NCBI GenBank assembly: GCA_964432675.1
Contig: CAYSOG010000001.1
Location: 4,523-68,522, forward strand
Length of the DNA: 64,000 nt
Reading direction: 5' to 3'
Origin: an uncultured Gammaproteobacteria bacterium
GTDB taxonomy: Bacteria > Patescibacteriota > Microgenomatia > CAYSOG01
Below, piece by piece: positions 38,949 through 58,316 of the stretch. A program made the position numbers and the translations under genes. Positions within the stretch are counted from its first letter, which is position 1. Every line of letters begins with the position of its first letter. The notes under the pieces were generated by a model that worked only from the letters and a program-made list of their open reading frames with translations, had not been told where the DNA came from and did not search any database.

Positions 38949-39434
38949 TTGCCGAGAAAAACGCTTTTAAGTGCAATTATTTTAATCATATTAGTGGTCG
39001 GTGCAGTGCTTGTAGCAAAAACTGTTTTGAAACCAAACCAGGCTGGCGAAAATAATACAACAGCCATGGGACAAGCAACAGAAAGTGCAATGGCTACGCC
39101 ACAGGAAATGGCAAGTACTTCTGCCATCAGTCCACAACCAACAACAGCTAGTACATCAAACATTAAGTCATTCACCGTAACCGGAAGCAATTTTGCGTTT
39201 AGTCCAAGCACACTGACTGTTTCCAAAGGTGATACGGTGAAAATAACATTTGTCAATTCTGGTGGCATCCATGATTTTGTGATTGACGAATTTAATGCCA
39301 AGACCTCTAAGATACAATCAGGCCAAAGCGAAACTATCCAATTTGTGGCCGATAAGGCTGGGAAATTTAGCTATTACTGCTCTGTTGCTAACCACCGTGC
39401 TATGGGGATGGAAGGGACACTCACCGTACAATAG
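38949..39434 (+). CDS. Cupredoxin (type-1 blue copper) domain protein, membrane-anchored
   Basis: TTG start 8 nt after RBS AAAGGTGGTGA. N-terminal TM. C-terminal cupredoxin with ligand pattern H (GGIHDF)...C-x4-H-x2-M (YYCSVANHRAMGM). Confidence 0.7.
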   Translation: MPRKTLLSAIILIILVVGAVLVAKTVLKPNQAGENNTTAMGQATESAMATPQEMASTSAISPQPTTASTSNIKSFTVTGSNFAFSPSTLTVSKGDTVKITFVNSGGIHDFVIDEFNAKTSKIQSGQSETIQFVADKAGKFSYYCSVANHRAMGMEGTLTVQ

Positions 39435-50275: not shown

Positions 50276-51013
50276 ATGAGAGTTATTTCCCTTGCACCGT
50301 CAAATACTGAAATTTTGTGCGCGTTGGGTTTAGCACATGATATTATCGCAACCACGATCTACTGCGATTATCCAAAGTCAATGGTGAAGAAACCGAAAGT
50401 TGGCAGTTGGATTGCTATTAAGCAAGATTATGTTGCCAGTCTTAAGCCGGACTTGATTGTTACTGCAACCGTCGTTCAAGAAAAAATCGCTGAAAGGTTA
50501 CAGCAGTCCAAACTTCCTGTGTTGCACCTTGATCCAAGGACAATAGATGGGATATATCGAAGTATTTTAGCAATTGGCCAGGCAACGGGTACTGAGGCAA
50601 AAGCTACACAGCTTATTGCCAGTATGAAGGATGAGCTTGAGAATCACAAAAATAAACTTCCAAAAAGACAACGGGTATACATTGAAGAATGGCATAGACC
50701 GCCATTTGCTTCTGGAAACTGGGTTCCCGAGTTAGTCTTTTATGCTGGTGGACAATATGGTTTAGTTTCACCAGGCATCCTTAGCAGAACAGTGACAACG
50801 AAAGAAGTACAGCAGTATGATCCGCAAGTCATTTTTCTCTCAATTTGTGGTTTTCATGATAAATTACCTACCGATATTGTCAGGCGGCGGAAAGGTTGGG
50901 AAAACCTATCTGCAGTTAAGCATAATCAGGTATACGTACTTGATGATACGGTTTTAAATCGTCCAGGCCCAAGAATTGTGAACGCCGTTTCCACCCTTCG
51001 GCAATACTTGTAG
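50276..51013 (+). CDS. BtuF/TroA-like (helical-backbone) periplasmic-binding-protein-fold protein, possibly cobalamin/metal binding
   Basis: RVISLAPSNTEILCALG...DLIVT and a C-terminal lobe. No obvious signal peptide. Confidence 0.55.
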   Translation: MRVISLAPSNTEILCALGLAHDIIATTIYCDYPKSMVKKPKVGSWIAIKQDYVASLKPDLIVTATVVQEKIAERLQQSKLPVLHLDPRTIDGIYRSILAIGQATGTEAKATQLIASMKDELENHKNKLPKRQRVYIEEWHRPPFASGNWVPELVFYAGGQYGLVSPGILSRTVTTKEVQQYDPQVIFLSICGFHDKLPTDIVRRRKGWENLSAVKHNQVYVLDDTVLNRPGPRIVNAVSTLRQYL

Positions 51014-52184: not shown

Positions 52185-52922
52185 ATGCATAAAGTAATTT
52201 TCCTTTTGTTATTATTTACTGCTATAAGCGGCATTGGCTTCGCCACTGCTAAGTTACTTGATCCAACACCGGCACCGTTGACAATGCGGAACATTTGGGC
52301 GAAAGTGGCCTATAAAGTGCTACAAAGGCAAAGTGAAAATAGCCAACAATGGTATGTAAACGATATTTTACGTCAGGTTAGCACTGGCAAGGTTACTACC
52401 CAGCTATCACAAGCAATTTATAACGACGAGCCAATTACGGTTCCAAAAATTTCCCGCGTATTGTCAGATTCAGCTGCAGTGCTACCAGCCGATGTTGGGA
52501 ATGGTACAAAATGGATTGAAGTTAATCTTGGCAACCAAACACTATATGCCCATGAAGGTGACAATGTGATCTATACTATGCGAATTTCTTCAGGTTTACC
52601 TTGGACGCCAACGCCAACTGGAACATTTAATATTTGGATTAAACTAAGGTCGACCCGAATGAAAGGCGGTTCTAAAGAAACGGGTGACTATTACGATTTA
52701 CCCAACGTGCCGTATACAATGTACTTTGACGGTGGTTATGGCATTCACGGTGCCTATTGGCATAATAATTTCGGCCATCCAATGAGCCACGGTTGCGTTA
52801 ACCTTTCACCCAAAGACGCCGAAGTTTTGTTCAATTGGGCAGACCCGACTTTGCCAGATGGGCAAAGCGCTATCCGGTCAACTGATGATAATCCTGGCAC
52901 CCAAGTTGTTGTCCACAGCTAA
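52185..52922 (+). CDS. L,D-transpeptidase (YkuD domain)
   Basis: Catalytic HGAYWHNNFGHPMSHGCVNL (His/Cys dyad). N-terminal signal. Confidence 0.8.
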   Translation: MHKVIFLLLLFTAISGIGFATAKLLDPTPAPLTMRNIWAKVAYKVLQRQSENSQQWYVNDILRQVSTGKVTTQLSQAIYNDEPITVPKISRVLSDSAAVLPADVGNGTKWIEVNLGNQTLYAHEGDNVIYTMRISSGLPWTPTPTGTFNIWIKLRSTRMKGGSKETGDYYDLPNVPYTMYFDGGYGIHGAYWHNNFGHPMSHGCVNLSPKDAEVLFNWADPTLPDGQSAIRSTDDNPGTQVVVHS

Positions 52923-52949
52923 ATTTTCTTATCATCTGCTATAATTTTC

Positions 52950-52997
52950 CTCGTTACTTGCAGTATACTCGTGAGCACACTCGTTACTTGCAGTATA
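52950..52997. repeat. Two direct copies of CTCGTTACTTGCAGTATA (18 bp) spaced 30 bp apart in the promoter region of gene 53024
   Basis: Copy 1 at 52950-52967, copy 2 at 52980-52997. Copy 2 reads TATAAT at its 3' end. Confidence 0.7.
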
Positions 52998-53023
52998 ATA
53001 AATTAACACGAGAATTCTGATTT

Positions 53024-53923
53024 TTGATGAAAAAATTACTTTCCCTCTTTATTGCTAGCATGCTTTTTTTGTTTGCCGCAAGGTTTTTTTCTGGGCCGGT
53101 TAGCGCACATACTGGTTCAGGTCCACCATTCTTACTCGTGAATGGTCAGTACGCCCAAACAAACCCATTCTATATGGGAGTGCCAGATTTTAAACTACTA
53201 ATTTCACAAGATGTCTCACCAGCAAAGTATTTAGTGAACCAACCCATACAGTTTTCGATAGATGGGCCAAAGCTACAAGTGCCGCAGGATGTTTTAAGCC
53301 ATTCTACTTTTCGGTGGAGCTTCGAAAATGGCAGTACTGATTACAAGTTTGGTCTAACGCAGCCATATACTTATAGCAAGGTTGGTTCCCACCTACTATC
53401 AGTATGGGTGAAAGGGCCGCAAGAAACGGAATATACCTTAATCGATACGGTCAAGGTTGATGTGGTGCCTAACATGCACTATCAATTGCCGCAAACAAAA
53501 ATTACGGTTTCGGGTAATAAATTACAATTGCACCAACCATTGTCGTTTTACAATAACACTACCACCGATAAATCGGCCAAGGTCCAATCATATTTATGGT
53601 ATTTAGACAATAATAGCTACACTACGCAGGCTAACCCTGTCTATACCTATAACCAGGGCGATTTTTTAAACTACGTCTTTTTACAGGTGACCGACAGTAA
53701 TGGTTTTTTGGTTGACGCGGCAATTACCGTCGATGGGACTGGACAAGATTTGGCATTCGCTAATTTAGATCCAAACGACCAAACCGCGGTTGTTGTATCG
53801 AAAGATACTAAAGCTAAATCGGCCTTTGCATTTAGTCCAATCTACCTCGAAATCGGTGCTATCATTATAATAATGGCCGCAATGACAATCGGATTATTCC
53901 GCAAAGCAAAGTCGAAGAAGTGA
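53024..53923 (+). CDS. Secreted protein with C-terminal membrane anchor, predicted mature N-terminal His (signal ...PVSA|HTG)
   Basis: Signal peptide, beta-rich PKD/Ig-like segments, C-terminal TM plus KAKSKK. Confidence 0.45.
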   Translation: MMKKLLSLFIASMLFLFAARFFSGPVSAHTGSGPPFLLVNGQYAQTNPFYMGVPDFKLLISQDVSPAKYLVNQPIQFSIDGPKLQVPQDVLSHSTFRWSFENGSTDYKFGLTQPYTYSKVGSHLLSVWVKGPQETEYTLIDTVKVDVVPNMHYQLPQTKITVSGNKLQLHQPLSFYNNTTTDKSAKVQSYLWYLDNNSYTTQANPVYTYNQGDFLNYVFLQVTDSNGFLVDAAITVDGTGQDLAFANLDPNDQTAVVVSKDTKAKSAFAFSPIYLEIGAIIIIMAAMTIGLFRKAKSKK

Positions 53924-53948
53924 TAGGGGAATTACAAGACATTAAGGT

Positions 53949-55511
53949 ATGAACCTTTTCTTAATCAAATATATTCGGCATATGGTATTGACCGCTAGTT
54001 TCATTACGGCGGTTGTCGTTTATATCATCTTATCGTTGACTTTTGCTGACACAAGCTTGCGTATAATTAGGTTAGTTGAAATATATGCCTTTTGTGCCGT
54101 CATTATGCTGTATTTAGCAATGTTGGCAAGTCCTCTCTATGCCGTTTTCCCAAATTTTCCATTTCGTCCGTATTACATTAAAGCGAGGCGCGCGATCGGT
54201 AATTCGGCATTCTTCTTTGGACTTACTCACGGTACGTTGGCGTTTTTTATGCTGTTGGGCGGATTTTCGGGTTTAGGGTTCCTGGCGCCGCAGTATCTGC
54301 TCGCTATTATTTTGAGTTTTACTGCCCTACTTATTTTGACATTAATGGCCGCCACATCGTTTGACTATATGGTGCAAAAACTTGGCACAAAGTGGAAAAA
54401 ATTACATCGTTTTGTTTATATTGCCGGCTTATTAGTCATCATCCACACATTCCTTATTGGTACGCATTTTCAGGATTTGTCAGGTTGGATACCGCAGCTC
54501 TTTATTGGAGCACTTGTGTTCTTGTTGTTACTTGAGTCCATTAGGTTTGACCGTTTCATTAGTAATAAATTTCTAGGCCTACCCCGATATGGCATCGTAT
54601 TTGTGCTTTGCGTAGTTGCCATGGCCGCTGCTATTTCCTATTTGTACTTTCCACAAGGGTCAGGGACACCAACTTTGGGTATTCATGCTGCCCATATCCA
54701 GCTAGCCAAGCAAGCCCAAAACACAACAGCCAACCAGCCATCGACCAATATCCCCGGACTAAATTGCGATAGGACAAAACGGTACACGGTAAGCTTTAAC
54801 AATCCTCCAAACGTTCAGCCGAACCAAGATGTAACCCTTACTTTTACGGTGTACGATGCTTCAAGCGGTAATCCGGTCACCTTCTTCACCCCAATTTATG
54901 AGAAAGTTATGCACCTTGTTATCGTTAACAATGATCTTACTTACTTTACCCATATTCACCCCACCCAAAATGGCGCAACGTTTAGTATCACTACAAAATT
55001 TCCAACCGATGGTGTTTACCATCTATACATAGATTTTCAACCCCTGGGGGCCATAGAACAGCAGATTGGTTTTACACTTCCAGTTGGTAATACGGCAAAT
55101 GTCCAACCTCCATCAATGCCAGCGGATACTAGTCTCACGAAGAATTTTGGCAATTATCAAGTGACCTTATCAAAACCAAATCCATTGAAAGCTGCCAATA
55201 TTTCGATCGGAGAGCAAACTTTAACCTTTACCATAAAAGATGCCAAAACCGGTCAGCCAATTACAACATTAAAGCCCTATTTGGCAGCATATGGTCACTT
55301 ATCGATGATTAACCAACAAACGTTCGATTTTATTCATGTCCACCCATCTAATTTAACCCCACCGGCACCAAATGCTAATGGTGGCCCAAATGTTACATTT
55401 TTACCACTTGGACTGTACGGACCAATTAAACCTGGCGTTTATACAATCTTTGCTGAATTTAATCCCGACGGAAACTTATTCACAGCAACTTTTACGGTAG
55501 AAGTACAATAG
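53949..55511 (+). CDS. Ferric-reductase-like transmembrane domain (di-heme, MsrQ/YedZ-type) fused to two tandem periplasmic His-containing beta-domains
   Basis: FRD-like 6-TM region with conserved His (GLTHGTLAF; LHRFVYIAGLLVIIHTF). Two roughly 110-aa repeats each carrying F(T/I)H(I/V)HP. Confidence 0.55.
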   Translation: MNLFLIKYIRHMVLTASFITAVVVYIILSLTFADTSLRIIRLVEIYAFCAVIMLYLAMLASPLYAVFPNFPFRPYYIKARRAIGNSAFFFGLTHGTLAFFMLLGGFSGLGFLAPQYLLAIILSFTALLILTLMAATSFDYMVQKLGTKWKKLHRFVYIAGLLVIIHTFLIGTHFQDLSGWIPQLFIGALVFLLLLESIRFDRFISNKFLGLPRYGIVFVLCVVAMAAAISYLYFPQGSGTPTLGIHAAHIQLAKQAQNTTANQPSTNIPGLNCDRTKRYTVSFNNPPNVQPNQDVTLTFTVYDASSGNPVTFFTPIYEKVMHLVIVNNDLTYFTHIHPTQNGATFSITTKFPTDGVYHLYIDFQPLGAIEQQIGFTLPVGNTANVQPPSMPADTSLTKNFGNYQVTLSKPNPLKAANISIGEQTLTFTIKDAKTGQPITTLKPYLAAYGHLSMINQQTFDFIHVHPSNLTPPAPNANGGPNVTFLPLGLYGPIKPGVYTIFAEFNPDGNLFTATFTVEVQ

Positions 55512-55667
55512 GAAAATCAAATATTAAGAATTGAAATGCAAAATCGTATAGTAGAATGTAACATTTTTCATTTTTTGAGCTATCCACCATCCGACAGCTG
55601 GCTGGAGGAGGGTTGCTTCATGAGTACATGACACTCGTACAATATTGATTTTTGATTTAACTACTAT

Positions 55668-56252
55668 ATGCTGAAAAAGATATCTGCTAGTATTCTTCTA
55701 TTTATAGTTTCTGGAATTATATTTGTCCCGATTGTTTCAGCTCATATCTTAAGGTCCGATGGTTCTATCGGTGCAGTATTACATATCGATCCAGAAGACG
55801 ATCCGATTGCTGGCCAACAATCTGGATTTTTCTTTGAGTTTAAGGATAAGCAAAATAAATTTACTCCCACCAATTGCGATTGTACATTTTCCATTAATGA
55901 ACAGAGCAAGGAAATTTATAGCCAGCCGTTGTTTGCGGGCAATGCTAATCCAAATTTAGAAAATGCATCGATATTTTATACGTTCCCCAAAAAAGACGTC
56001 TATGAAGTGGCGGTAGTTGGTAAGCCAATCCAAGCCAACGCTTTCCAGCCATTTACTCTACGATACGACCTGCGGGTAGATCGGGAAGTACAAAATGGCT
56101 ATACGTCCAATAACATCTTTTTCAGTGATCTAGAGCAGCTTAATAATAACTTAGGTGGTCATCTACCACATTATGTTGGTCTTGCGATTATTGTTATTGC
56201 GTTCCTTATATTTTTATATATTGATAGACGTAATCGTCCAAAAAATATATAA
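55668..56252 (+). CDS. Secreted His1 protein with C-terminal TM anchor (CopC/YtkA-like candidate copper-binding protein)
   Basis: Signal peptide ending VSA|HIL. CxC (NCDC). C-terminal TM (VGLAIIVIAFLIFLYI). Confidence 0.4.
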   Translation: MLKKISASILLFIVSGIIFVPIVSAHILRSDGSIGAVLHIDPEDDPIAGQQSGFFFEFKDKQNKFTPTNCDCTFSINEQSKEIYSQPLFAGNANPNLENASIFYTFPKKDVYEVAVVGKPIQANAFQPFTLRYDLRVDREVQNGYTSNNIFFSDLEQLNNNLGGHLPHYVGLAIIVIAFLIFLYIDRRNRPKNI

Positions 56253-56297
56253 CTATTAAAAACAAATATAAGTTAGGCAATTTTAAAAGGAGTAATT

Positions 56298-56951
56298 ATG
56301 CATCGGAAAATTATTACTGTTTCTGTCGTTACAATGGCGTTTCTGCTGTTGAGCGTTTCGGTTGCATCGGCACATATGGTTGTTAAACCTTCTACTGTTG
56401 GTATTGGCAGCGTCCAAAACTTTAGTTTGGGTGTACCAACTGAAAAGGGAGGCTCGACGGTTGCTGTTCGTTTGCTAGTTCCGGATGGCCTAGATGACGT
56501 AACACCAAATGTCAAACCCGGCTGGAGGATTGAAGTCAAGAAAAATGGTACAGGCGATAACTTACCAGTTACCGAAATTGATTGGAGTGGTGGCAGCATC
56601 CCATCAGGTCAGCGAGATGAGTTTTTATTTTCGGCCCAAGTCCCGGCGAACACGACAATATTGCAGTGGAAAGCCTACCAAATATACAACGATGGTAGTA
56701 CGGTTGCTTGGGACCAACCTCCAGTAAACAATGCTGCGTCACCCGCTGATGATAGCACGATGAAAAACGGATCTTATTCTACTACGCAGGTTGTTAATGA
56801 CCTGACTAGCAATGCAACCGGATCGGTTATGGCAAATGCTTCATCGGATAAAACAGTTAGTTATGTTGCTTGGGCAGCTCTTGCTATTGCCCTAGTATCA
56901 TTGGTGTTGGCGGTAAAGCCAATGATGAAGCCAAAAGACACCAACATCTAA
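56298..56951 (+). CDS. YcnI-like (DUF1775) copper-binding protein, C-terminal TM anchor
   Basis: Signal ending ASA|HMVV, then GIGSVQNFSLGVPTEKGGSTVAVRLLVPDGL..VKPGW....IDWSGG.I..GQRDEFLF, which matches the YcnI/DUF1775 architecture. Thr/Ser linker and TM. Confidence 0.7.
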   Translation: MHRKIITVSVVTMAFLLLSVSVASAHMVVKPSTVGIGSVQNFSLGVPTEKGGSTVAVRLLVPDGLDDVTPNVKPGWRIEVKKNGTGDNLPVTEIDWSGGSIPSGQRDEFLFSAQVPANTTILQWKAYQIYNDGSTVAWDQPPVNNAASPADDSTMKNGSYSTTQVVNDLTSNATGSVMANASSDKTVSYVAWAALAIALVSLVLAVKPMMKPKDTNI

Positions 56952-56981
56952 AGAGTTTGAAATTGCTATAGAAATGAAAAA

Positions 56982-57014
56982 TGGCTTGTACCTTTTGGGG
57001 TGCAAGCCATTTTC
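56982..57014 (+). terminator. Intrinsic terminator after YcnI-like gene
   Basis: TGGCTTGTACC-ttttgg-GGTGCAAGCCA followed by TTTTCAATAT. Confidence 0.6.
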
Positions 57015-57605
57015 AATATAAGACCTGGTAGTAAAACCACCAGGTCTCAAAAAAGGAGGTGAGAGTGTCCCTTGCGGGACAAAAGTATACTACCATATTA
57101 GTCGACAAATGTCAAACCTATAAGTAATAAATAATGATGTTCACTTTGCTCTGTTTTAGATACGTTTTGAGATTAGCCGAAGCCAGCATATATGCAATAA
57201 GTTAGAATTACTTATAAACCTATAGCAGAATATTAATGTCACCACTAATATACCAAAAGTTATCACTTTAAATTTACTATTGCCAATCTGCAAAGTAATT
57301 ATTCAAGTTGATATAGTTTAAAACTAGAGTGTATTTAATTGATAGAATTGACAGGGCATTTATGGTCCATGGTATTGTACACCCAGTACGGTTGCTCGGC
57401 TTAAGTAAGGTATCAATACTGAGCAAAATGCAATGATTTCCTTCCGATAATCCATTAGCAGGCTTACGGCCGTACAAATGTTTCGGAAAGCGCTTTTTCA
57501 CTGAAAAATGCGCTCCTGCCCTTTTTCGAAACATGTCATTATTTACTGTTCCAACTAATGCAAAACAACACTTGCCCATTTATTAATCAATCTATTATTT
57601 TTACT

Positions 57606-57654
57606 ACCGGTAACGAATACTCTCATGCAGAGGGATGTGTTACCGGTTTTTATT
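57606..57654 (+). promoter_or_regulatory. Terminator-like long hairpin (ACCGGTAAC...GTTACCGGT + T5) in leader about 45 nt upstream of TasA-like gene; candidate attenuator/riboregulator
   Basis: 9-bp perfect stem, 24-nt loop, then TTTTTATT. It sits between a roughly 650-bp non-coding region and the RBS GGGAGGTGAGGG. Confidence 0.5.
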
Positions 57655-57701
57655 GATCAAAAGTAAAGTCAAAAATTTCAATTGAAGGGAGGTGAGGGAA
57701 T

Positions 57702-58316
57702 ATAAATACAAAAATTGCATTAAGCGGCCTCTCCGTCGTTGCCTCACTAGCCCTCATGGGTGGTGCAACGTTTGCATTTTTTACTAGCACTGCAACCAGC
57801 ACTGCAAATGCTTTTTCATCAGGAACCCTAATATTACAGGTTAATGATAATAATGAAACAGCAGCAGCATCTGTTACTGCCTCATTTAATACGGGTAATA
57901 CTGGATTAAAACCGGGGGATACTACGTCTGGCTTCATCTCACTTGATAATACTGGATCAATTAATATAGATCATATTACTTTGGCAGTATCTCAGACGGC
58001 TAATAGCACCCCGAGTTTAGCAGACGTATTAAATGTTACGGCAGCAGGATTATCAACAAGTTCATCGTGTACTAGCCCAACAGATTTACTCGCAGGTTGG
58101 CAGGCACAATCAGGTTTAAGTGGACCCACAACGTTAACTAAATTAATAACCAAGGGTGAGTTTAACGCTGTACCAGGAGGTTTAACAGCAGGAGCAACGA
58201 AGTATCTTTGTATGACTTTCACGATGGATAGTAATGCAACAAATACTTACCAAGGTGCTACAACGACGGATACATTTAGCTTTATTGGGAAGCAAGATGC
58301 GTCGCAATTACCTTAG
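57702..58316 (+). CDS. TasA/camelysin-like secreted protein with SipW-cognate-type signal peptide (fibre subunit candidate 1)
   Basis: In-frame upstream of the first ATG (57756) the frame encodes NINTKIALSGLSVVASLAL-MGGATFAFFTSTATSTANAFSSGTL. This is a complete n/h-region plus the TasA-class motif, so initiation probably occurs at ATA/ATT (57702/57714) 5-17 nt after the RBS. Thr/Ser-rich. Confidence 0.6.
   Translation: MNTKIALSGLSVVASLALMGGATFAFFTSTATSTANAFSSGTLILQVNDNNETAAASVTASFNTGNTGLKPGDTTSGFISLDNTGSINIDHITLAVSQTANSTPSLADVLNVTAAGLSTSSSCTSPTDLLAGWQAQSGLSGPTTLTKLITKGEFNAVPGGLTAGATKYLCMTFTMDSNATNTYQGATTTDTFSFIGKQDASQLP

Follow-up and report, generated by a model that had tools for sequence, protein, structure and literature searches.

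Does an enzyme catalyse the reduction of Cu(II) when bacteria acquire copper? The question has been stated as open for Bacillus subtilis (PMC13344008), and it is raised here by a four-gene cluster from an uncultured bacterium (GTDB lineage Bacteria; Patescibacteriota; Microgenomatia; CAYSOG01) that belongs to the ultra-small bacteria of the Candidate Phyla Radiation (CPR). The window, by which we mean the whole stretch of DNA that was analysed, spans 64,000 nucleotides (nt) of contig CAYSOG010000001.1 (assembly GCA_964432675.1, positions 4,523 to 68,522 of the forward strand), and all coordinates below are counted from its first letter unless they carry the number of a related locus (L001 and so on). 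The cluster encodes three secreted proteins with histidine as the predicted first residue of the mature form (p1, p3 and p4) and a membrane protein, p2, in which a ferric-reductase domain (FRD) is fused to two extracytoplasmic domains. A first-pass annotation of this DNA had proposed that p2 reduces Cu(II) to Cu(I) for uptake, an idea that we consider plausible. Our own reading, which we put forward tentatively and at a little short of an even chance, is that p1-p4 constitute one extracytoplasmic copper-handling module in which Cu(II) would be captured and then reduced on the p2 ectodomain.

Four genes read as one conserved unit

The cluster comprises the following open reading frames (ORFs; lengths in amino acids, aa).

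53024-53923, + strand: p1, ORF of 299 aa
53949-55511, + strand: p2, ORF of 520 aa
55668-56252, + strand: p3, ORF of 194 aa
56298-56951, + strand: p4, ORF of 217 aa

According to the NCBI annotation, p1 starts at the ATG at 53027. All four genes lie on the + strand with gaps of 25, 156 and 45 nt between p1-p2, p2-p3 and p3-p4, and because they share a strand, are closely spaced and are followed by a terminator-like hairpin, we read them as an operon. The three proteins with N-terminal histidine had been described as consecutive; this needs correcting, since p2 sits between p1 and p3.

To place the cluster in context, we compared it with 49 related CPR loci. The order p2-p3-p4 on one strand is retained in nearly all of them, wherever the flank suffices, and a p1 homologue lies either directly 5' of p2 or directly 3' of p4. 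When the neighbouring ORFs were clustered, the four families of the cluster were found in 48, 44, 38 and 31 loci, any other family was found in at most 9, and the flanking genes were not conserved. The closest relatives of p2 all come from CPR/Microgenomates-type assemblies, for instance Woyke-, Davies-, Curtiss- and Levybacteria. In one relative (P0368, 787 aa), p1 and p2 are fused into a single protein that still has the A|H motif described below, with a signal peptide before it. The conserved order, this p1-p2 fusion and the p3-p5 fusions described next argue that p1-p4 form one unit rather than a coincidental neighbourhood. Recent horizontal transfer of the cluster was considered and set aside, as base composition gives no hint of it, the GC content of the cluster (~0.40-0.41) being the same as that of its flanks.

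A further family, p5, accompanies the cluster in 20 of the related loci. It is a small two-helix membrane protein (113-156 aa), encoded between the p3 and ycnI homologues in 13 loci and fused to p3 in 7.

L001:8036-8395, L006:9103-9468, L028:5633-5989, L031:8094-8522 and 9 other loci: separate p5
L008, L018, L021, L023, L036, L037 and L043: p5 fused to p3

Three motifs mark p5: EHxxH at the N-terminal end, H(P)CCxPQ, and R(S/A)PP at the C-terminal end, 3-4 residues before the stop codon. No Pfam family was found for it in a scan to E ≤ 10, and it is absent from the window. Judging by these motifs, p5 looks like the upstream ORFs that encode RAPP-type arrest peptides, which have transmembrane (TM) segments and reportedly are enriched 5' of YcnI genes and act in copper regulation (PMC12992588).

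Three tethered surface proteins with a predicted N-terminal histidine

The following features were assigned to p1, p3 and p4.

p1, aa 1-28, + strand: signal peptide, with His29 as predicted mature residue 1
p1, aa 71-132 and 166-227: PKD domains (PKD 29.7 bits; PKD_4 23.7 bits, under its cut-off of 27)
p1, aa ~273-292: C-terminal TM anchor, followed by a basic tail
p3, aa 1-25, + strand: signal peptide, with His26 as predicted mature residue 1
p4, aa 1-25, + strand: signal peptide, with His26 as predicted mature N-terminus

In each of the three signal peptides a basic n-region precedes a hydrophobic core, and the -3/-1 motifs are VSA|H (p1), VSA|H (p3) and ASA|H (p4). The cleavage junction was judged by orthologue alignments from the 49 loci and by alignment to the YcnI crystal construct. 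Across orthologues the A|H junction is kept while the signal peptide sequences vary freely, with His1 present in 39/39 orthologues of p4, in 45/46 of p3 (the lone exception being a truncated ORF call) and in 28/31 of p1, where the other 3 have Asn. A regular expression for a signal peptide followed by xA|H, applied to all 365 six-frame ORFs of the window, returned only p1, p3 and p4 together with one obvious false positive. The conserved junction and the alignment of p4 to the YcnI structure 7me6 thus bear out the first-pass annotation in predicting His as residue 1 of all three proteins. Each is also predicted to carry a C-terminal TM anchor, which would make them type-I membrane-tethered ectoproteins.

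The identity of p4 as a member of the YcnI/DUF1775 family, as had been suggested, was confirmed by a PF07987 match of 79.5 bits over aa 26-150 (cut-off 25) and by a match to B. subtilis YcnI 7me6 (E = 2.4e-13), where the first residue of the mature construct pairs with His26. In the same alignment, His26, Glu49 and Trp138 of p4 correspond to His1, Glu24 and Trp111 of the 7me6 chain (BsGlu50 and BsTrp137 for the latter two), and this triad is kept in 39/39 orthologues. His/Glu/Trp constitutes the mono-histidine-brace Cu(II) site of YcnI (PMC8424229), a Cu(II)-binding protein that exchanges the metal with CopC (PMC8424229; PMC12362106), and p4 has this ligand triad complete. Its globular domain is followed by a Ser/Thr/Asn-rich linker, the TM anchor (aa ~187-206) and a Lys-rich tail.

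For p3, searches against Pfam (to E ≤ 10), NCBIfam and PDB sequences gave no meaningful match, including none to CopC or DUF2946, and among its 223 homologues one has a single PF12420 match while the rest have no Pfam domain; by these sequence searches, p3 belongs to no existing family. The first-pass annotation had likened the N-terminal histidines to those of CopC, and the CopC model likewise found no match in any cluster protein, even at an E-value of 10. A model of mature p3 (predicted local distance difference test, pLDDT, 89.4) displays an eight-strand beta-sandwich followed by the C-terminal TM helix. Invariant residues, in mature numbering, are His1, Gly10, His14, Pro17, Asp19, Pro21, Asp35, Cys45, Cys47 and Tyr87. 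In the first hairpin of the model (strands 2-6 and 9-16), the register sets His1 opposite His14. This pair may form a brace-like Cu(II) site, and a Cu(I) site at the Cys-x-Cys motif is plausible. The best fold match of p3 in the PDB is PmoD (6cpd, E = 6e-4, TM-score 0.57, normalised to target length). We also considered p3 as a diverged copy of the p2 ectodomains and rejected this (hhalign probability 3%).

p1 evolves fast. Its mature N-terminus has the motif H-x-G-x-PPF-x-ING-x-Y, and the short segment that bears His1 precedes the two PKD domains and the anchor. A word-index homologue search with p1 returned p1 itself alone, and its orthologues were therefore taken from the related loci. A metal role for p1 is suggested by its His1 and its linkage to the cluster.

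The p2 membrane domain resembles single-heme flavocytochromes

Three regions are distinguished in p2.

53949-54569, + strand: aa 1-207, six-helix MsrQ/YedZ-type ferric-reductase domain (PF01794, MsrQ alignment)
54594-54722, + strand: aa 216-258, extra seventh TM helix and juxtamembrane helix (model helices 216-233 and 245-258)
54777-55508, + strand: aa 277-520, two beta-sandwich domains with three invariant His each

The first region matches PF01794 (Ferric_reduct) with 29.5 bits against a cut-off of 28, and the same domain was found in 20/20 homologues. Its predicted heme b ligands are His94 and His166, and its predicted flavin-pocket residues are Arg80, Arg81, Ser137, Trp149 and His153. In the alignment with E. 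coli MsrQ, R80/R81, H94, S137, W149, H153 and H166 correspond to R77/R78, H91, S135, W147, H151 and H164, and all are invariant. The signature of the YedZ/MsrQ/STEAP group is an Arg in place of the first heme His and a single outer heme b, with the Arg pair, the Trp and His151 holding the flavin at the cytoplasmic face (PMC3591440; PMC12525009). Because the invariant residues of p2 match this pattern, its membrane domain is predicted to be a single-heme flavocytochrome with an outer heme b and a cytoplasmic flavin pocket. The domain had earlier been called di-heme, and this has to be revised: a di-heme domain of the NOX/FRE type has four heme-ligating histidines, two each in TM helices 3 and 5, but TM helix 3 of p2 has H94 only, and the position 14 residues upstream is the invariant Arg. 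The other part of that description, a ferric-reductase-like TM domain fused to two F(T/I)H(I/V)HP repeats, agrees with the PF01794 match and with the presence of both motifs. No sequence relative with a solved structure was found for the membrane domain. An assignment of p2 as an MsrQ orthologue was rejected, given 47.6 bits against the cut-off of 130 of the NCBIfam equivalog NF003831 and the absence of a molybdoenzyme/MsrP gene from the cluster.

The AlphaFold model of p2, which is confident (pLDDT 90.5), contains seven TM helices, two beta-sandwich domains and, at 245-258, a short helix. By its sequence, a cytoplasmic position suits the basic loop at 196-214, and the seventh helix, coming after this loop, places the C-terminal ~290 residues outside the cell. 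Between membrane and ectodomains, the juxtamembrane helix carries His246 and His249 in the motif IHAxHIQLA; they are conserved in 100% and 90%, respectively, of the FRD-fused relatives, and the motif is absent from relatives that lack the FRD. The STEAP and FRE relatives of this domain are ferri- and cupri-reductases (PMC3591440; PMC12525009).

The p2 ectodomain belongs to a tandem three-histidine family found in copper operons

Each beta-sandwich of the p2 ectodomain carries three histidines in the pattern H-x12-H-x-H-P, namely H322/H335/H337-P338 and H450/H463/H465-P466, which include the motifs FTHIHP (aa 333-338) and FIHVHP (aa 461-466). A profile search with aa 236-520 recovered 4145 cluster representatives, 2179 of them at E ≤ 1e-10, and in the best 148 of the 4145 the six histidines are at least 96% conserved. 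This tandem 3-His domain has no Pfam family of its own and no solved structure related by sequence. Its resemblance to a Pfam family is a weak one, to YtkA (PF13115), whose domains in CtaK and in the C-terminal part of YcnJ have a role in the assembly of CuA (PMC13344008; PMC9145763). Five of 20 homologues match it at E ≤ 0.01 and a distant relative, P0349, reaches 36.3 bits, while p2 itself scores 21.6 bits against a cut-off of 25.9.

Relatives of the ectodomain also occur in other architectures, either fused to Cupredoxin_1, YHYH or HMBD repeats, to PKD together with a reductase domain, or to a weak, sub-cut-off cytochrome c match, or else as stand-alone proteins, one of which matches 242 plasmids, 101 of them staphylococcal. 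On the Staphylococcus aureus plasmid CP030478.1 (L053:5932-6585), the tandem 3-His gene lies directly after csoR, copA and copZ. On pROB01 of Rhodococcus opacus (L054:5755-6696), it is situated between a gene for an HMA-domain protein and one for a P1B-type ATPase, with a CsoR gene adjoining, and on pANACY.02 of Anabaena (L052:6893-7771) genes for a MerR-type regulator, a protein with an HMA domain and a pair of RND efflux components precede it. All three plasmid proteins are called "hypothetical" and no Pfam model matches any of them, and all six histidines are invariant between them and p2 at 30-36% identity. Of the new evidence for copper handling by the p2 ectodomain, the presence of this domain in cop operons with its histidines unchanged is the strongest. 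As far as sequence can tell, the tandem 3-His domain represents a large, previously unrecognised, copper-linked family.

A surface cuproprotein encoded in the window

A motif search of the window for CopA, CopZ, CsoR and multicopper oxidases, besides cupredoxins, returned a cupredoxin only.

38949-39434, + strand: membrane-anchored blue-copper protein (plastocyanin/azurin family), 14 kb 5' of the cluster

The protein matches Cupredoxin_1 with 46.9 bits and Copper-bind (plastocyanin/azurin) with 39.2 bits, and it has type-1 copper ligands H...C-x5-H-x4-M in the pattern GIHDF...YYCSVANHRAMGM. Homologues were found within a few kb of the cluster in three of the related loci (L004, L005 and L033). 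The organism thus has a surface cuproprotein to supply, and this cupredoxin is a possible client or partner of the cluster, outside the operon. A blue-copper protein here also stands out in a lineage usually described as fermentative.

Proposed mechanism and the points that weigh against it

In the mechanism that we propose, p1, p3 and p4, three different folds, would capture Cu(II) at the cell surface through their N-terminal histidines, p4 by means of the YcnI mono-histidine brace and p3 probably by means of His1/His14. The tethered proteins would then hand copper to the two 3-His domains of p2, over the outer face of the flavocytochrome b. Electrons would pass from a cytoplasmic reductant to the flavin, from there to the single heme b and on to the outside, where Cu(II) would become Cu(I), and the Cu(I) would be taken up by an unlinked importer or would load surface cuproproteins such as the cupredoxin 14 kb 5'. 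Capture of Cu(II) is established chemistry for YcnI, and by analogy it may extend to p3 and p1. What the sequences show is the gene order and how far it is conserved, the identity of the domains, the conserved ligand residues, the topology and the association of the 3-His domain with copper operons; from these we infer the metal bound by p1, p2 and p3, the direction of copper flow, the reduction itself, the electron donor and the fate of Cu(I). The more specific claim that p2 would give bacteria a first extracytoplasmic cupric reductase of the MsrQ/STEAP FRD type, fed by three convergent His-1 copper catchers, is possible, and we regard it as doubtful.

Several observations weigh against copper capture and reduction by this module. 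CPR bacteria are not known to make heme, and p2 would therefore need a scavenged cofactor. The YtkA model leaves p2 under its cut-off, and a fold search with full-length p2 returned only generic tandem Ig/FnIII matches, just as the fold matches of p3 other than PmoD are generic Ig/PKD ones. The relatives in cop operons possess the 3-His domain without any reductase. The window cluster has no gene for a copper importer (CopD, CcoA or CTR-like), a P1B ATPase, CopZ or a copper regulator, and none of these is a recurrent neighbour in the 49 loci. The neighbours that do occur point to other metals: a Sod_Ni gene with an S26-type maturation peptidase lies ~2-5 kb from the cluster in 8/49 loci, a ZIP transporter directly 5' of p2 in 5 loci, and a Fur-family gene adjoins the cluster in 5 loci. 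Three p1 orthologues have Asn in place of His1, and proteins with N-terminal His can prefer Ni or other metals (PMC12537917). The positions of these neighbours are as follows; sodN, ZIP and Fur genes are all missing from the window.

L008:1291-2084, L033:1740-2530, L014:486-1261, L017, L018, L023, L037, L040 and L055:5294-6087: Sod_Ni/peptidase, ZIP and Fur neighbours

Alternative explanations

In the main rival reading, copper would instead stay fixed on the 3-His sites of p2, in a type-2-like manner, making p2 a surface redox enzyme or an electron conduit to a cupredoxin. The acceptor would then be O2, superoxide, nitrite or an anchored cupredoxin, and p1, p3 and p4 would serve as loading chaperones. 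Such an arrangement would account for the fusion of the tandem 3-His domain to three electron-transfer modules (the ferric-reductase domain, cupredoxin and cytochrome c), and the window does hold a cupredoxin gene, as do the surroundings of the cluster in 3 loci. Type-2 sites made of three His relay electrons poorly, however, and neither the window nor the loci displayed a candidate terminal enzyme (NirK or an oxidase). Sod_Ni and MsrA neighbours hint at oxidative stress, MsrQ feeds an enzyme and not a metal ion (PMC12525009), and the electron route to extracytoplasmic cupredoxin/NirK in CPR bacteria has been left as "unknown means" (PMC5581439), all of which suit a surface redox role. Copper as cargo is better suited by the relatives that lie in csoR-copA-copZ operons or are fused to HMBD, and the remote YtkA relatives are trafficking domains. 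On this evidence we hold copper fixed on p2 to be rather unlikely.

Reductive uptake of iron, or of a broader range of metals, is the next explanation to be weighed. Here p2 would be a STEAP/FRO2-like ferric reductase, the His-rich ectoproteins would bind Fe or use a Cu cofactor in the way of P19, FetP and EfeO, and Fe(II) would enter through ZIP or another transporter under Fur control. The ZIP gene 5' of p2 recalls the FRO2/IRT1 pairing, and members of the Cupredoxin_1 family are found in iron systems of the EfeO type too. Neither the window nor ~90% of the loci have ZIP or Fur, though, no FTR1/EfeU or FeoB was found, and both YcnI and the cop-operon relatives indicate copper. Cu(II)/Ni(II), rather than Fe(III), is what sites made of His only and an N-terminal His brace typically bind. 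PF01794 takes its name from ferric reductases, and enzymes of the STEAP and FRE kinds reduce Fe(III) as well as Cu(II) (PMC3591440), which keeps iron in the discussion; we nevertheless judge it improbable.

Much less probable still is acquisition of nickel for Ni-superoxide dismutase, with the N-terminal histidines as Ni(II) ligands. It would explain the Sod_Ni and S26 peptidase genes near the cluster, and DUF4198 proteins and HupE/UreJ-linked domains do rely on an N-terminal His and bind Ni (PMC12537917). Ni(II) needs no reductase, which leaves the invariant electron-transfer fusion unexplained; besides the lack of sodN in the window, the cluster has no linked Ni permease, and the ligand set of YcnI is a characterised Cu(II) site. 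Finally, structural or adhesive Ig/PKD surface proteins whose histidines have no metal role, with a reductase domain serving something unrelated, would fit the PKD and generic Ig/FnIII folds that dominate the structure-search matches, the abundance of such proteins on CPR surfaces and the surface-related camelysin-like, SipW-like and LTD genes downstream, but this is hardly credible in view of histidines that never change even where identity in the sequence around them has dropped to 30%, an intact YcnI triad, relatives in copper operons, a conserved gene order and the fusions.

Regulatory elements and surroundings of the cluster

These elements were found around the genes.

52937-52945, + strand: extended -10-like element TGcTATAAT, just past the YkuD stop codon (read from the sequence)
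52950-52997, + strand: two perfect 18-bp direct repeats CTCGTTACTTGCAGTATA, with starts at 52950 and 52980, 30 bp apart
56978-57013, no strand assigned: terminator-like hairpin with 15-nt arms (93% complementary) and a 6-nt loop, closing the four-gene unit

The -10-like element constitutes weak evidence, the consensus promoter scan being not enriched over shuffles. The 18-bp repeats noted earlier 5' of p1 are real, since none of 100 shuffles gave two or more matches. They lie between the promoter-like element and p1 and are unique in the window, and they are possibly an operator or a duplicated promoter. The sequence CTCGTTACTTGCAGTATA is absent from the 49 related loci and confined to this genome, and the upstream regions of these loci displayed no shared k-mer or repeat. 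A copper-responsive regulator or operator of the CsoR, CopY or YcnK type, for which a search near the repeats had been suggested, was not found: no CsoR, CopY, YcnK or Fur gene is present in the window cluster, and no CopY-box (TACAnnTGTA) was read in the two upstream spacers. At the RNA level, an Rfam scan of the whole window at gathering thresholds returned tRNA-Gln only, a lenient scan of 52800-57800 gave sub-threshold matches only, on terminator hairpins, and the spacer 5' of p1 showed no stable RNA fold (z = -1.0).

The p2-p3 spacer (55512-55667, 156 nt) is found at a position where p2 and p3 abut or overlap in most related loci. Its RNA fold has z = -2.0, it holds a perfect palindrome, AATGTAACATT, and it has in common with the p1 upstream region the elements ACACTCGT(T)AC and AAT(A/TC)TGATTTTTGAT. 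From their sequence, these elements may be an internal promoter or operator.

Directly 5' of the cluster is an L,D-transpeptidase (YkuD) gene. Three genes 5' of the cluster, on the + strand at 50276-51013, the window encodes a Peripla_BP_2 homologue (iron-siderophore/cobalamin/heme-type) without an obvious signal peptide, which is not kept beside the cluster in other loci. On the 3' side, camelysin-like, SipW-like and LTD-domain genes follow beyond ~800 nt (56952-57755) that hold no convincing ORF on the + strand. Within this interval, a second hairpin (57021-47) adjoins the terminator-like one; a 20-codon ORF has a perfect Shine-Dalgarno sequence, AAAGGAGGTGAG, at 57052 and a GTG start at ~57066 (MSLAGQKYTTILVDKCQTYK); and an antisense ORF (57277-57579, 100 aa) belongs to no family. 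The camelysin-like gene probably begins 5' of its listed ATG at 57756: after a strong Shine-Dalgarno sequence at 57685, AAGGGAGGTGAG, an in-frame ATA AAT ACA AAA... codes for a signal-peptide-like stretch. The placement of this Shine-Dalgarno sequence suggests a non-canonical (ATA/ATT) start codon.

Significance and comparison with known systems

The cluster provides a compact, testable candidate for enzyme-catalysed Cu(II) reduction in bacteria: with the electron conduit, the metal-binding domains and a Cu(II) chaperone physically or genetically fused, its function could be tested with few components. It also exposes two families without a Pfam model, the His1/CxC beta-sandwich of p3 and the tandem H-x12-H-x-H domain, the latter with thousands of members, some of them on clinical staphylococcal copper-resistance plasmids. 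In addition, it bears on the supply of copper, and possibly of electrons, to extracytoplasmic cupredoxins in CPR bacteria, whose redox metabolism is minimal. If p2 is a cupric reductase, then copper acquisition by bacteria would include, as an integral part, the reduction of Cu(II) by an enzyme, and the surface cuproproteins of CPR bacteria would be served by a route dedicated to electrons and copper. Within the collection of papers searched, none named both DUF1775 and "ferric reductase".

Among known systems, B. subtilis ycnKJI resembles the cluster in that an anchored YcnI with the His/Glu/Trp triad is encoded beside a polytopic membrane protein that bears extracytoplasmic beta-sandwiches of a copper-trafficking kind, YtkA in YcnJ and remotely YtkA-like in p2, so that several tethered Cu(II) binders could exchange metal. 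Unlike ycnKJI, in which YcnJ combines CopC, CopD and YtkA and YcnK is a repressor, the cluster has no CopC, no CopD permease and no YcnK. Its membrane partner is an MsrQ-type electron carrier and not a transporter, with ectodomains that belong to the tandem 3-His family scoring under the YtkA cut-off, and it encodes two further His-1 proteins (p1 and p3).

With MsrQ and STEAP, p2 shares the six-helix FRD and the Arg in place of the first heme His, and it would also share the one outer heme b and the cytoplasmic flavin pocket; its presumed acceptor, as in STEAP and FRE, would be a metal ion outside the membrane. It differs from MsrQ in its seventh helix, its ~290 residues of ectodomains and its lack of an MsrP partner, and from STEAP2-4 in lacking a fused NADPH-oxidoreductase domain. 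The bacterial cupric reductases proposed so far are CcoG and, tentatively, CrpH (PMC13038864). Like them, p2 is a membrane protein suggested to reduce Cu(II) for the supply of cuproproteins, whereas the folds and cofactors of CcoG (4Fe-4S, cytoplasmic face) and CrpH (PepSY_TM, di-heme) are unrelated to those of p2. CrpH comes closer in being heme-based, with a large extracytoplasmic part, and in being encoded among copper-acquisition genes with a RAPP-type upstream ORF, which in our case looks to be present in the relatives. In contrast to both, p2 has fused 3-His beta-sandwiches, and its partners are His-1 proteins instead of a TonB-dependent transporter.

As for the tethered proteins, p3 has the overall layout of PmoD/AmoD, in which a signal peptide is followed by one beta-sandwich where two Cys are invariant and then by a TM helix at the C-terminus, but it has no sequence similarity to PmoD and lacks the Cx7MxHxnC motif found in the cupredoxin-like ectodomain of PmoD/AmoD, having C45-x-C47 instead (PMC6189053), together with an N-terminal His1, His14, Asp19 and Asp35. 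The "signal-strapped" binders (CopC, the LPMO-like X325/Bim1, DUF4198 and Ang-1/Ang-2) offer a wider parallel, since there too signal cleavage exposes a His1 chelator on a beta-sandwich, and membrane proteins for metal uptake have the His-1 proteins tethered to them or associated with them. Neither p1 nor p3 matches any of these by sequence, the second ligands differ, and here one operon combines three different His1 folds. Taken singly, YcnI, the MsrQ/STEAP-type domain and the YtkA-like fold are parts of known kinds, and what is new is their assembly.

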